A stretch of 29,927 nt of DNA from a virus. Taxonomy: Duplodnaviria > Caudoviricetes. Shown piece by piece: positions 20,296-24,600 of this stretch; the stretch's first letter is position 1, and every line of letters begins with the position of its first letter. The stretch lies in the IMG/VR virus record IMGVR_UViG_3300020568_000017, positions 1-29,927 of that record; one strand, written 5' to 3'. The notes beneath the pieces are model-generated. The model had not been told where the DNA came from. It worked only from the letters and a program-made list of their open reading frames with translations, and made no database searches. A program made the position numbers and the translations under genes.

Positions 20296-20706
20296 TCACT
20301 TTTCGCCAGTTTCTGTGCAGTCGGGCGGCGGCGGGAGCGGCATCCAGTGGGTGTACGCGCCAGCGACCAGATTCTTTCTGTCGGTGCCAACCCAGCCGTC
20401 CCAATACTTTGATATGCACGCCGCCTCGCACCCGCGATTCGGCCCGTAGCACCAGACCCATTCGCCGTCCGCCGGCAGTCGCTTGCTCACCGCGATCCAG
20501 CGGCCGGCGTCCTTCGGCACCAGCACCCATTCCTTCGTCTCCAGTGCCGTCGCCAGATCGTCTAGTTGGCTCCCGGTGACGTACTGCTCAGTCACTATCA
20601 TGACGGCACCGTTGACCTCGGCACTGATCTTGAGCGACCGGACGTTCTCCAGGCCGAGAGCGGCGAGGATGCGGCTGATCGCTTTGTTCGGCGGGCATAT
20701 CGCCAT
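20296..20706 (-). CDS. DUF551 domain protein
   Basis: RWIAVSKRLP...YTHWMPLPPPP. Confidence 0.8.
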   Translation of the reverse strand: MAICPPNKAISRILAALGLENVRSLKISAEVNGAVMIVTEQYVTGSQLDDLATALETKEWVLVPKDAGRWIAVSKRLPADGEWVWCYGPNRGCEAACISKYWDGWVGTDRKNLVAGAYTHWMPLPPPPDCTETGEK

Positions 20707-21020
20707 CACTTCACCTCCGGTGGCTGGCGATTCAGCACTTGCTCGGCAGTCGGAATGACGCCGGACTTGATTCGCAGGTTGGCAGGCGGCACTGGCCTCA
20801 GTGGAGGCGGCGGCCCCTTCGGCATCTCGCGGTAATGCTCACACTTCATGTTGGCGAGGCAGCGGCCCTCTGTGATCGCTGGCGGTGCAGGCGGTGACGG
20901 CGGTGCGGGGTTGCTCGCCTTCGGAAACCAGACGCACCTACCTTCTCGCATCGTTCGGCTCGCATTGCAGCCAATGAGCGACCCAACGAAGGCGGCAGCA
21001 GCCAAGGCCCAGAACTCCAT
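20706..21020 (-). CDS. Pro-rich exported/lipoprotein-like protein
   Basis: Hydrophobic N-terminus MEFWALAAAAFVGSLIGC; ends PPEVK; TGATG couplings. Confidence 0.6.
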   Translation of the reverse strand: MEFWALAAAAFVGSLIGCNASRTMREGRCVWFPKASNPAPPSPPAPPAITEGRCLANMKCEHYREMPKGPPPPLRPVPPANLRIKSGVIPTAEQVLNRQPPEVK

Positions 21021-21391
21021 CACTTCACCTGCGGCGGCTCGGGGAGCGGCGTCCAGTGACTCGGCTCGTACAGGGCAACATCGTCCCCAAGCCATCCGTC
21101 GCTCTGCGTGTACGTCGCCAGCCCTAAGTCATCAAGTTCAGGGTCAAACACCAGCACTCGCTGCTCACCTTCCGGCAGTCGCTCGCTCACCGGAATCCAG
21201 CGGCGATCCAGAAAGGCGTCCGTGATGCCATCGGCCAATTTTGCCTGGAACTCGTAGTCGGCTTTTTGTAGCCGCTCAAGTTCGCTGCACATTTGCAGCA
21301 TCAGCACGGCAGCGGCCGATGGATTTATGTCCTCGTCTTTGATGGCCCACTTCTCGGCCACTCGCCTGTAGGCAGAAACGTCAAGTTCCAT
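21020..21391 (-). CDS. DUF551 domain protein
   Basis: RWIPVSERLP...PSHWTPLPEPPQVK. Confidence 0.8.
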   Translation of the reverse strand: MELDVSAYRRVAEKWAIKDEDINPSAAAVLMLQMCSELERLQKADYEFQAKLADGITDAFLDRRWIPVSERLPEGEQRVLVFDPELDDLGLATYTQSDGWLGDDVALYEPSHWTPLPEPPQVK

Positions 21392-21627
21392 CACTTCACC
21401 TCCGGTGGCTCAAACTTCATCGCCGTTGGGTCAGGCCCGCCCGTGCAATGCGTCGGCTTCGTCGGCGTCCAATCCAACTCCTTGACCGGGAACCCTTCGA
21501 CGGTCGTCTGCTTCCACGCCTCATCAAGCCTGCGTGCCATCGCAATCTGAAAGGCCGTGATGATAAAGGCGGTGACCGGGCAAGGCGGCAGCGTGGACGG
21601 CCAGATTACGGAGTCGTCGTCGCTCAT
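21391..21627 (-). CDS. Small hypothetical protein ending EPPEVK
   Basis: 78 aa, TGATG couplings with GGAGGTG SD. Confidence 0.6.
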   Translation of the reverse strand: MSDDDSVIWPSTLPPCPVTAFIITAFQIAMARRLDEAWKQTTVEGFPVKELDWTPTKPTHCTGGPDPTAMKFEPPEVK

Positions 21628-21830
21628 CACTTCACCTCCGTCAACACCTGCCACGCTTCATAGCACCCGCTGCCGACCGGAGAGCCTTGCAGTAAGTACG
21701 CGGCGTTTTGGATCAGCATCCGCAGGCGTGTGATCTCATTCTCTAGGTCTTCCGCCTCGCTATACATCCGCCGCTCGGCCTCGGTGCAGTCGCAGTTCAT
21801 CGGCTTCTGGTCGCAGATCGGGCAGGTCAT
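21627..21830 (-). CDS. Small Cys-rich hypothetical protein (CPICDQKPMNCDC)
   Basis: 67 aa, ends TEVK at a junction repeat. Confidence 0.65.
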   Translation of the reverse strand: MTCPICDQKPMNCDCTEAERRMYSEAEDLENEITRLRMLIQNAAYLLQGSPVGSGCYEAWQVLTEVK

Positions 21831-21849
21831 GTCTCTTCACTCTTTATCT

Positions 21850-21892
21850 AGTGCCGTGCGTTATCACGTTCCGCAGAAACACTGGTTATGCC
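21850..21892 (+). other. attI-like primary recombination site
   Basis: GCAGAAAC-ACTG-GTTATGCC with upstream GTTATCA and GTTCCGC; GTTATGCC (21885-92) is the exact reverse complement of attC1 R'' GGCATAAC and has no attC hairpin in front of it. Confidence 0.55.
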
Positions 21893-22128
21893 TTCTTCCG
21901 CTCTGCCTTTGCGATTTCCGCATCGGCCCATTCTCTGACCTGCCGCTGCCATTCCCTGTCGGGCTGGCGAGTAAGCCAGTCTCGGATTTTCCTCGCCACC
22001 GCAAGGCCGTCCGAAAGCCCTCGCTGGTGCGCCGCGCTCAGTAAATCGTCTAACGCGGCGTCAAATCGTTGCTGTGGCGCGGCATAACCACGCGATGCAG
22101 CGGACATCTCATCTACCTCGTCTGTCAT
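21886..22128 (-). CDS. Cassette 1 hypothetical protein
   Basis: SD (AGGAG) and ATG lie in the attC1 loop; TAA lies in the GTTATGC core. Confidence 0.7.
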   Translation of the reverse strand: MTDEVDEMSAASRGYAAPQQRFDAALDDLLSAAHQRGLSDGLAVARKIRDWLTRQPDREWQRQVREWADAEIAKAERKKA

Positions 22129-22170
22129 GGTCGCTCCTGTGTTCGATGCCGCTGATCGCTGGCGTTCTCA
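22082..22170 (+). repeat. attC site 1
   Basis: GCATAAC-CACGC-GATGCAGC-GGACATC...GATGCC-GCTGATC-GCTGGC-GTTCTCA. Confidence 0.88.
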
Positions 22171-22419
22171 GAACAGTCGCTTCGCCAAGCCGCGCAACAC
22201 TTCGGCGTGTGCCGCGACCTCTGGGGTGTCTTCCTCATCCCACTCGTCGGCCTCTCTTGCAGCCCATGCAATCGCAAGTTGCTCCGCTTCGGTGAGCGAG
22301 GGCGAGCGTTCAGCCCGTGCAAGACGCTCCTGCTCAAGCCGTTCCATTTCTGCGTCCTCCTGCCTGCGCTCTTCCGCCTTGCGCATTTGCTGCTGCTCCC
22401 AGATTTCTTCTTCAGTCAT
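22168..22419 (-). CDS. Cassette 2 hypothetical protein (LTEAE...LRGLAKRL domain)
   Basis: AGGAG SD next to attC2 R''; TGA within attC1 R'. Confidence 0.7.
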   Translation of the reverse strand: MTEEEIWEQQQMRKAEERRQEDAEMERLEQERLARAERSPSLTEAEQLAIAWAAREADEWDEEDTPEVAAHAEVLRGLAKRLF

Positions 22420-22431
22420 GCCGTCTTCTCC

Positions 22432-22519
22432 TGAGAACCACGCGATGCAGCGGACCCGCGATGCCGCCGCCTAGTGTTGTTCGTCAGCGGTCGCGGGCCG
22501 CTGATCTCTGGCGTTCTCA
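22432..22519 (+). repeat. attC site 2
   Basis: TGAGAAC-CACGC-GATGCAGC-GGACCCGCGA...TCGCGGGCC-GCTGATC-TCTGGC-GTTCTCA. Confidence 0.9.
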
Positions 22520-22765
22520 CTTCCCGATCACCTTGCGCAGCGTGTCGGCATCCCGTCGCCTCTCGCCCTCCAGTTGCTCAAGCCGCTCCCGCAGCACCGA
22601 GTTCTGCCCACGCAGCCGCCATATCTCCTCAACCAGCGGGTCAGATCCTGTTGCCCAGTGCATCAACCAAGCCGACCCGAAGAACGACGCCGGGATGAGC
22701 ACGGCAAGAGAAAACCACGCATACCAAGGCATTTCGCTAGGCATTTTTCGTATCACATACGGCAT
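22517..22765 (-). CDS. Cassette 3 single-TM coiled-coil protein
   Basis: Hydrophobic WYAWFSLAVLIPASFFGSAWLM then a charged helix; TGA within attC2 R'. Confidence 0.65.
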   Translation of the reverse strand: MPYVIRKMPSEMPWYAWFSLAVLIPASFFGSAWLMHWATGSDPLVEEIWRLRGQNSVLRERLEQLEGERRRDADTLRKVIGK

Positions 22766-22768
22766 GGT

Positions 22769-23071
22769 TTAGGTCGGCCCCGCCCCGCCTACATCAGTGA
22801 CCTTGGTGGCACCAAGGCGTTCGACGGGAGCAGGGCCGACTTGTTGAGTTCGCTCCAGCAACCCGCTTATCGAAGCAGCAATCATCCCGCAAACCTCGTC
22901 GTCGTCCTGCATCGCATAGGTGTCTCGCACCATCCGCAGGAACGTCCGCTCCTCGTCGGTGAGTCGCAGGCGTTCGATCTCGTCGGCGGCATCGTCCAGC
23001 AACGCCAGCGGTTCGCCTTCCTGCTCTGCCCGTAGTGATCTCTCTCGCAGTTCGTTCGCTATGTCGCTCAT
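22769..23071 (-). CDS. Cassette 3 hypothetical protein (AADEIERL + LTDEER...LLER)
   Basis: MSDIANELRE start coupled (ATGA) to the upstream gene. Confidence 0.7.
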   Translation of the reverse strand: MSDIANELRERSLRAEQEGEPLALLDDAADEIERLRLTDEERTFLRMVRDTYAMQDDDEVCGMIAASISGLLERTQQVGPAPVERLGATKVTDVGGAGPT

Positions 23072-23469
23072 TTCGTCCGCTCCAGTAGCGACAGCAGCGT
23101 CTGGCGGGCTTCGGCATCCCACTCCGAACACTCCGCCGACCTGTCGATCACGCCTCCCAGCGAGCAACAGGCTCTCTCAACCGCCTCTCGCTCCTCTGCC
23201 GTCAGAGTCACACCCTTCCGCAGCCTCTTGAGTTCATCGTTTTTCACCAGCGTGTAGTCCGCCCAGGTGGAGCATTGGATGACCCTGCCGATCTGGTCTG
23301 CGTCCGAGAGCCGCGTCACAGTCACAGTCGGCTCGTTGTGGACGTTGACATCAATGCGGATGCTCTGCGTCAGTGCCGGATCGGCTCCGATGGTTTCGGC
23401 AAGCCTGCCGGTGAGTTCAGCGCGAGAACCAACAGATGCAGCGGACAGCTTTGCATCGTCTTTAGGCAT
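23068..23469 (-). CDS. Cassette 3 hypothetical protein (LTAEER...LLER C-terminal domain)
   Basis: SD (AAAGGA) and ATG (MPKDDAKLSAASVGS) lie in the attC3 loop. Confidence 0.7.
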   Translation of the reverse strand: MPKDDAKLSAASVGSRAELTGRLAETIGADPALTQSIRIDVNVHNEPTVTVTRLSDADQIGRVIQCSTWADYTLVKNDELKRLRKGVTLTAEEREAVERACCSLGGVIDRSAECSEWDAEARQTLLSLLERTK

Positions 23470-23511
23470 AGGGATTCCTTTCATCGCTGCCGCTGATCCT
23501 GCGCGTTCTGT
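23423..23511 (+). repeat. attC site 3
   Basis: CGAGAAC-CAACA-GATGCAGC-GGACAGC...GCTGCC-GCTGATC-CTGCGC-GTTCTGT. Confidence 0.88.
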
Positions 23512-23513
23512 GG

Positions 23514-23828
23514 CTACTTGTCGGCTTGTGGCGGGGCCGGGAGCGGCATCCAGTGGCTTGGCTCCATCTCGTCGTAGTCCCATTCTCCGTCGCGTCGCTG
23601 CTGCACACGCATTTCGATGTAGCCGTTGTGGTCGGAAATGGAGAACGTCAGCACATATTCCTTATCGGCTGGCATCCGCTCGCTCACAGGAATCCACCGT
23701 GCTCGCGTGAACGCATCGGTTATGTCAAAAAGAATCTTCTCTCGCGTCTCCCACAGTTCAGCCATAGCCGCGACTGCGTCGTCGCCGCCGTTGCGGATGC
23801 GGATTTCACAGTCTTTCGTGATTGCCAT
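23514..23828 (-). CDS. Cassette 4 DUF551 domain protein
   Basis: RWIPVSERMP...PSHWMPLPAPP; GGAGG SD. Confidence 0.8.
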   Translation of the reverse strand: MAITKDCEIRIRNGGDDAVAAMAELWETREKILFDITDAFTRARWIPVSERMPADKEYVLTFSISDHNGYIEMRVQQRRDGEWDYDEMEPSHWMPLPAPPQADK

Positions 23829-23848
23829 AGTTCCTCCACTCTACGCTC

Positions 23849-23939
23849 ACAGAACCACGCGATGCAGCGGACCCGCGATGGCGTCGGTTGTTTTTGTTCA
23901 TGGTCATAGGTCGCGGGCCGCTGATCGCAAGCGTTTTCA
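23849..23939 (+). repeat. attC site 4
   Basis: ACAGAAC-CACGC-GATGCAGC-GGACCCGCGA...TCGCGGGCC-GCTGATC-GCAAGC-GTTTTCA. Confidence 0.9.
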
Positions 23940-24236
23940 GTTCAATCGTTCCAGCAACGCACGCAGGGCGACCACGCCGGGATCGTCCTGCCCAAGATGC
24001 TCGCTTGCCCAATCAGCGACGACGCTGACTCGCTCCCGCTCCTCGTCGGTAAGCGCGGGCGGTGTGTTCGCTGCTTGGGCCGATTTTCCGGCACCGGAAA
24101 TCGCTCGCTCCAGCGCCGCCGCGAGCCGGTGGATCATGCAGTCCCGGTGCCACATGTGGCACCCGGCACTGTGGGTGCTGACGCGAGCGGCCTGCTGGTC
24201 ACGCCACTCACGGTAATCGGCAAGGATGTCGCTCAT
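23937..24236 (-). CDS. Hypothetical protein with His/Cys motif (THSAGCHMWHRDC) and LTDEER...LLER domain
   Basis: MSDILAD start with GGAG upstream; TGA within attC4 R'. Confidence 0.7.
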   Translation of the reverse strand: MSDILADYREWRDQQAARVSTHSAGCHMWHRDCMIHRLAAALERAISGAGKSAQAANTPPALTDEERERVSVVADWASEHLGQDDPGVVALRALLERLN

Positions 24237-24255
24237 TTGTCCATGCTCCAGAATG

Positions 24256-24315
24256 GCGATCCCGGCGGGTTCGGCTTGCCGGATTATCGGGCCGGTGCCT
24301 GCCCGCCGGGATCGC
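24256..24315. repeat. Perfect 14-bp inverted repeat (GCGATCCCGGCGGG/CCCGCCGGGATCGC)
   Basis: Arms 24256-24269 and 24302-24315. Confidence 0.8.
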
Positions 24316-24344
24316 TGATCGGTAAGAAACCCTAGGCACTTTTT

Positions 24345-24411
24345 CTGACGCCCCAATCGTATCGTATAAGACACGTTTTTCGGCGGTTCTTGCATACGGT
24401 TGGGGCGTTAG
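24345..24411. repeat. 18-bp imperfect inverted repeat ending in a GTTAGGT core-like motif
   Basis: CTGACGCCCCAATCGTAT (24345-62) / ATACGGTTGGGGCGTTAG (24394-411), 2 mismatches. Confidence 0.75.
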
Positions 24412-24420
24412 GTTCCGCCT

Positions 24421-24600
24421 CTAAGGACATTCGGCCTGCTGCTCCTTCGCGGCGCGCAACCGCTTGCGGTTCTTGTGCTGGCGGCCGCGAGAGCAGTACG
24501 GGCATGTGCCACCGGGTCGGCATGTGCGGTCAAAGGCTGCGGCCTTGTGGTATCCGCGCCGCCGCTCCTTGCCGTGTTCGATTGCTTTGTCCAGTCCCAT
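24421..24600 (-). CDS. Small basic Cys protein (LDKAIEHGKE...CRPGGTCPYC)
   Basis: Recognisable small phage protein pattern; start uncertain (24600, 24609 or 24663). Confidence 0.7.
   Translation of the reverse strand: MGLDKAIEHGKERRRGYHKAAAFDRTCRPGGTCPYCSRGRQHKNRKRLRAAKEQQAECP

Follow-up and report, generated by a model that had tools for sequence, protein, structure and literature searches.

Integrons are seen as a bacterial tool, and the subject of the present work is an integron-like cassette array carried by a virus, namely by the IMG/VR record IMGVR_UViG_3300020568_000017 (Duplodnaviria; Caudoviricetes). The whole record, which is 29.9 kb long and estimated to be about 70% complete, was analysed and is here called the window. 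Its terminase, portal, HK97-type capsid and HNH genes, recognized from a list of open reading frames (ORFs) and by Pfam and PHROG searches, all lie on the - strand. The array itself, at positions 21840-23939, consists of an attI-like head followed by four attC sites of 88-91 bp. The + strand is taken as its top strand because the spacers and bulges of the sites fit this strand, and because the hairpin on the 5' side of a gene travels with that gene; the - strand was rejected as the top strand on the same grounds. Runs of lake and freshwater metagenomes contain the array stretch, at least half of its words being found in 23 of the 24 listed, and no RNA run is among those listed as containing it; in 50,697 GenBank phages it has no match.

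The four sites, attC1 (22082-22170, 89 bp), attC2 (22432-22519, 88 bp), attC3 (23423-23511, 89 bp) and attC4 (23849-23939, 91 bp), share on the + strand the same succession of elements, namely AAC, a 5-nt spacer, GAT(G)CAGC, GG(A)C, a loop, GCTGATC, a 6-nt spacer and GTT, the bottom (-) strand being the one predicted to recombine. A covariance model was built from 29 chromosomal attC sites, taken from seven regions beside hits to the integron integrase IntI in Planctomycete genomes; it scored the four sites at 58.7, 56.8, 43.6 and 65.8 bits, respectively, with the next-best match at 12.2 bits. A structure-only scanner found exactly these four sites in the window and none in each of 15 shuffles. 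In the predicted folds, the bottom strands form a hairpin with two extrahelical bases, an unpaired central spacer and a variable terminal structure. Furthermore, the cores that open and close each unit pair over 8/8, 8/8, 7/8 and 8/8 positions in cassettes 1 to 4, and all four bottom strands fold more stably when rebuilt as circles than as found (-19.6 vs -14.8, -29.7 vs -28.8, -17.6 vs -15.1 and -26.7 vs -20.2 kcal/mol). An earlier interpretation made from the letters alone, here the sequence-only reading, had described four elements of attC architecture whose opening and closing cores are complementary with one mismatch, and had suggested a covariance model as a check; the elements, their lengths and the single mismatch are all as described, and the check, run with our own Planctomycete model, returned the scores given above. 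Box and spacer layout, bottom-strand hairpin and covariance-model match are thus those of attC sites, and, as judged from sequence, the window elements are real attC sites with a real attI-like head. With four attC sites and no PF00589 or TIGR02249 match in the record, the array also has the composition of an attC site cluster without an integrase (CALIN), defined as at least two attC with no intI nearby (Cury 2016, PMC4889954).

The attI-like docking site (21840-21892, + strand) is a simple site of the form AAA-N5-GTT, with a GTTAT repeat 25 nt upstream and a crossover at G|TT, the G lying at 21885, and it is identified by both sequence and behaviour. The 46-nt head of the window is 100% identical in three other contigs, where a different cassette stands behind it, and lake contigs contain joints from 21887 with unknown filling, that is, other cassettes behind the same head. 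More generally, the attI motif was found in 22 viral stretches with 17 different first cassettes; an attC lies downstream in 19 of the 22 stretches, and in 17 of those 19 the closing core (R'') of the first site matches in at least 4 of 5 positions. The window head resembles attI sites of inverted-integrase integrons, located 228-358 nt downstream of a co-oriented intI in five genomes of the order Pirellulales, and a second phage head type matches sites upstream of a divergently oriented intI (L360, L368). The attI that heads the array of a complete integron therefore appears to be present here by sequence and behaviour, and the attI-like site proposed in the sequence-only reading is sustained by the shared head with differing first cassettes and by the host match.

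All genes of the window array lie on the bottom strand, antisense to the cassette polarity; in canonical cassettes the gene lies on the top strand and points towards attC, an orientation that is typical, not absolute. Their stop codons fall in the opening G|TT cores (at 21886, 22168, 22517, 23514 and 23937), two genes start inside the loop of their attC and one has its ribosome-binding site at R''. Cassette 1 (21886-22164, 279 bp; this and the following cassettes on the + strand, their genes on the - strand) holds a gene for 80 amino acids (aa) at 21886-22128, with its ATG and its ribosome-binding site AGGAG inside the attC1 loop, TAA in the opening core and no Pfam or PHROG match; a 95% identical protein is encoded in the related locus L060, where the cassette stands behind an attC, not behind attI. 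Cassettes 2, 3 and 4 are identical in L060. The 83-aa gene of cassette 2 (cassette 22165-22513, 349 bp; gene 22168-22419), the ribosome-binding site of which abuts R'' and the TGA of which lies in the opening core, has no family match in Pfam or PHROG. Cassette 3 (22514-23505, 992 bp) contains three reversed genes: one of 82 aa (22517-22765) with a hydrophobic stretch, a coiled-coil-like C-terminus, a TGA in the opening core and no family match; one of 100 aa and LTDEER type (22769-23071), the 3' end of which is a GC-rich in-frame palindrome; and one of 133 aa (23068-23469) starting inside the attC3 loop. Parts of this cassette are found separately in L010, L024, L026 and L038, and it is likely, from these sequence matches, a composite of former cassettes. 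The palindrome (about 22771-22840, some 70 bp) lies in frame in LTDEER-type genes and occurs in nine other loci at varied positions. In cassette 4 (23506-23933, 428 bp), a 104-aa DUF551 gene (23514-23828; PF04448, E 7.7e-14) is preceded by a predicted 33-aa leader ORF (23806-23907, - strand), which begins in the loop of attC4 and runs over the start of the DUF551 gene. Finally, a distal reversed gene (23937-24236, - strand) has its TGA in the last GTT core and no closing attC.

The reversed genes, the three genes of cassette 3 and this fifth reversed gene without a closing attC all go beyond the sequence-only reading. The latter had also claimed that the cargo is paralogous to genes outside the array, which holds for DUF551, found in cassette 4 and in two outside genes with 43% and 36% identity; the LTDEER-type counterpart is weak, the sole match being that of cassette 2 with the distal fifth gene (E 0.001). 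A distal reversed gene without a closing attC occurs in 38 of the 43 arrays having at least two attC and 2 kb of distal DNA (own scanner, overlapping loci included), and may represent a cassette that has decayed, or the gene at which platform insertion originally took place. A second strong hairpin lies at 24255-24320, immediately upstream of the distal gene, and is found again close to the array ends of more than 10 relatives, in some cases directly after the last GTT or just before attI. On the other side, left of attI at 20296-21830, genes are chained by a repeated junction made of a ribosome-binding site, an 'EVK' stop and an overlapping start (copies near 20704, 21018, 21389 and 21625), two of the chained genes being DUF551 genes without attC; the exact motif is found in few relatives. 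These chained junctions may constitute a second, homology-based swapping system.

The array belongs to a family, collected with a narrow pattern that gave 132 loci in 118 viral IMG/VR records, with about 170 stretches estimated. For core matching 8 overlapping loci were removed and for alignment ends 16; the remaining family counts may contain duplicate loci of one contig. Among 177 delimited phage cassettes, which form 163 clusters, 114 have a reversed ORF only, 42 both orientations, 18 neither and 3 a forward ORF only. The three forward-gene candidates were rejected: of the two that were inspected, c14 contains reversed genes and no convincing gene could be made out in c27, and the remaining candidate has a helix-turn-helix match that is reversed. 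Pfam matches were obtained for 40 of the 150 reversed ORFs tested (of 173), vs none of 131 forward ORFs, and comprise DUF551 (18), DNA methylases (11, some below the cut-off), HNH nucleases (2) and others. Of the 142 cassettes with long sites, 94 have an in-frame ATG within the attC, 76 of them together with a Shine-Dalgarno-like motif. There are also mini-attC sites of 41-48 nt from AAC to GTT with almost no terminal loop, which make up 30 of the 216 distinct phage attC (L026, L052, L074, L338, L374 and others) and are found on phage-type cassettes in host arrays as well.

In an alignment of 113 distinct phage sites, which was fitted to the covariance model, 15 of the 21 stem pairs show two-sided changes, a score reached by none of 500 shuffles. 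Across 57 adjacent pairs, the pairing expected of a circle averages 3.95 of 5 positions (30 pairs being perfect), vs 2.67 as found and 2.49 as the permuted mean, and 0/10,000 permutations reach the observed core matching. Moreover, alignments between relatives tend to break at the crossover: 28 of 42 left ends lie within -40..+12 of G|TT, 10 of them exactly at 0, and on the right 24 of 41 ends lie within -10..+12. Over 21885-24432, L060 and the window are 99.4% identical, but L060 has another head and three extra cassettes in front, and the identical cassettes c97, c98 and c99 stand in the order 97-98-99 in L053 and 98-99-97 in L063. R'/R'' complementarity and units that move at G|TT are the marks of integron cassettes, and, by sequence comparison, G|TT is where the relatives have gained, lost and reordered phage cassettes; this is the outcome of the comparison of cassette order that the sequence-only reading had recommended. 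Hints on cassette origin come from two further comparisons of sequence. Cassette genes of L043 and L117 share 68% identity with the naked gene at 21391-21627, the similarity fading at the gene borders, and at 41 nt from the end, where host loops have AATG, phage sites have CATG, a bottom-strand start (AATG in 46 of 138 host sites vs CATG in 45 of 186 phage sites).

The hosts in question are suggested by the sites themselves. Near-identical attC occur in 18 of the 301 genomes of the order of G054, a Pirellulales metagenome-assembled genome (MAG), a full IntI above the cut-off (265 bits for TIGR02249) was found in all 10 tested of those 18, and both types of phage head have matches among the host attI sites; one terminase relative, with 45% identity, is also named Pirellulales. 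Five genomes of this order (G117, G175, G187, G318 and G358) have two IntI hits each above the cut-off, two of them with an internal stop; at least three attI types occur in these genomes, and the phages carry copies of two. Of 69 cassettes in Pirellulales-order arrays, 22 are forward, 43 unclassified and 4 reversed with phage-type attC, the longest ORF being forward in 52; another Planctomycete chromosomal-integron set gave 37 forward, 1 reversed, 2 both and 41 unclassified. Three of the four reversed host-array cassettes have phage counterparts: with a cassette of L026 the identity is 95.5% over 267 bp, with L041 it reaches 98.7% over 302 bp, and with L115 it is 90% over 364 bp. Since their junctions share little more than the core with dissimilar neighbouring host attC, misassembly, though possible, is argued against, and the Pfam matches beyond two of these host arrays are not phage families. 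Matches to toxin families of toxin-antitoxin systems were found for 4 of 63 host cassettes.

In the light of these matches, the array is, as far as its sequence tells, an integrase-less integron platform of a phage, with reversed genes, and is probably operated in trans by the IntI of a Pirellulales host; the involvement of host IntI is suggested by the host attI and attC matches together with the phage-type cassettes inside bacterial arrays. The sequence-only reading had already proposed that IntI is used in trans, a part for which these same observations speak, its operation staying a matter of inference. Several points weigh against the proposal. The host has been inferred rather than observed, and host MAG contigs could be chimeric. 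The test with the host-trained model is only partly independent, since the training genomes were reached via a pattern from the window, the IntI hits next to two of the seven training regions are truncated and the structure-only scanner demands the same attC architecture. Core matching is at most 3/5 in 17 of the 57 adjacent pairs, some of them explained by missed sites. A scan for sigma-70 promoters around the array found 0 vs 1.0 expected (a promoter and terminator scan of the array was likewise not above shuffles). The circle junctions that had been suggested as a check did not appear, no precise excision or circle junction being listed in the contigs of 8 lake runs, in which some joints went unseen and from which rare variants are dropped. 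The idea that reversal silences defence cassettes is poorly supported, since PADLOC recognized only 3 of 63 host cassettes, by partial domains. Finally, a PF00589 protein, that is, a general tyrosine recombinase, is encoded in 32 of 50 related records and in 17 of the 18 near-complete ones. Thus, the absence of an integrase asserted in the sequence-only reading stands for the record as it is, where a profile search matched neither PF00589 nor TIGR02249, but the record is about 70% complete and its near-complete relatives encode a tyrosine recombinase that is not IntI.

This last point leads to the alternative that the sites are recombined by a divergent tyrosine recombinase of the phage itself, whose gene would probably lie in the 30% of the genome that the record lacks. 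In an alignment of five such proteins the catalytic columns R, H, R, H and Y are conserved, and in L018 and L028 (G009, G015) the recombinase gene adjoins the array, being placed at its distal end and co-oriented with the cassette genes, in L028 with about 10 nt between its stop and the last GTT. However, the IntI cut-off is reached in none of 27 phage records, the best TIGR02249 score among 20 phage recombinases is 26.5 bits vs a cut-off of 265, and the five aligned proteins lack the IntI insertion, which is needed for folded attC according to Cury 2016 (PMC4889954); the intI with its specific insertion that belongs to a complete integron is thus absent from the phage records tested. Furthermore, the recombinase gene is kilobases from the array in most records, and sites next to true host IntI match the attI and attC of the phage, so that this alternative seems to us quite unlikely.

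Unlikely, too, is the possibility that the attC are host-derived repeats now serving as gene leaders, with swaps produced not by IntI but by homologous recombination between their arms. The arms are indeed near-identical repeats, of the 42 left alignment ends, 16 reach 11-40 nt inside the arm that is shared, another repeated junction links four genes nearby, and the starts inside the loop give the hairpin a second use. On the other hand, G|TT junctions join unrelated left flanks (attI vs attC) that share the core only, circle-type core matching would not persist under homologous recombination, the bulged bases and spacers are kept in the 216 distinct sites (where the scanner requires them) and phage cassettes lie between dissimilar host attC sites. 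As to a frozen, inactive fragment of a host integron captured once, it could account for a record without an integrase, for the composite look of cassette 3 and for the distal gene without attC; the cargo is phage-type and reversed, unlike that of host cassettes, the number of clusters is nearly that of the cassettes (163 among 177), and the finding of identical cassettes in differing orders largely refutes it, which leaves it very improbable.

If the platform is indeed operated by host IntI, the following scheme can be envisaged. During infection or lysogeny, the host IntI would fold and cut the attC bottom strand, releasing a circle that would insert at the phage attI or at that of the host; a preference of IntI for the bottom strand of attC is described in Loot 2017 (PMC5371416). 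Because the platform points against phage transcription, the array would be read from its distal end, in the - strand operon of the phage and without a Pc promoter, which, the genes being reversed, would not express the window cassettes anyway. With a stop at the foot of the next hairpin and a start often in its loop, translation would be coupled from cassette to cassette, and new insertions would add their genes at the end of the run. In a phage array, incoming forward cassettes of the host would be antisense and would stay silent, as would phage cassettes in an array of the host; for such mutual antisense silencing of the two pools there is little direct support.

How these arrays relate to known systems can be set out on several points. 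Phage CALINs are already known, and one of them carries DUF551 and methylase genes as its cargo: Qi et al. 2023 (PMC9892861) found 17 of them in 10,705 genomes, described them as a route for host cassettes and, for five of six tested attC, obtained recombination with IntI1. The window array resembles them as an attC cluster without IntI in a phage. Tetrasphaera phage TJE1 is similar also in its DUF551 and methylase cassettes and in its 42-nt mini-attC (attC1 short), but its genes are forward whereas those of the window are reversed. The parts of Qi et al. considered here report no reversed family, conserved host-type attI in a CALIN of a virulent phage, reordering between related phages or phage cassettes in host arrays. 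In a phage of that study (MW202573; L387:3674-3734), an attC-like site is opposite to its flanking genes, our scanner having found one of the four reported sites. Chromosomal integrons of Planctomycetota (Pirellulales) share attC length (80-85 nt), L boxes, bulged bases and attI sequence with the phage arrays, but have intI and genes facing forward; they include 'inverted-integrase integrons', a term used in PMC13323075. SALIN/attG insertions, as outlined in Loot et al. (bioRxiv 10.1101/2022.09.11.507474), likewise involve IntI in trans and sites away from an integron, but here the target, instead of being a chance attG, is an attI-like site that is conserved and that host integrons have as well, and the cargo consists of phage genes. 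Among CC-licensed PMC and bioRxiv papers, searched by titles and the starts of abstracts, none was found on a reversed, host-attI-headed phage cassette family or on its exchange with hosts.

A broader picture, which we put forward tentatively, as one that could well prove wrong, is that of a widespread guild of lake phages running a mirror-image integron on the host integrase. Both host attI types would have been copied, the attC loop made a translation start by one base change (AATG to CATG) and new cassettes built from the phages' own genes, with recombinase and cassettes shared with the host while each pool stays silent in the other's array. Recent preprints present integrons as stores of anti-phage genes. 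Phages, in turn, appear to exploit the integron machinery for their own accessory genome, made of DUF551 proteins, DNA methylases and HNH nucleases. How cassettes are formed is called unknown in Cury 2016 (PMC4889954) and Loot 2017 (PMC5371416); given the pairs of naked and cassette genes and the matched attI/IntI pairs of phage and host, both the birth of cassettes and their flow between phage and host become directly testable. If the broader picture is true, these phages would be a place where the making of new cassettes can be seen.

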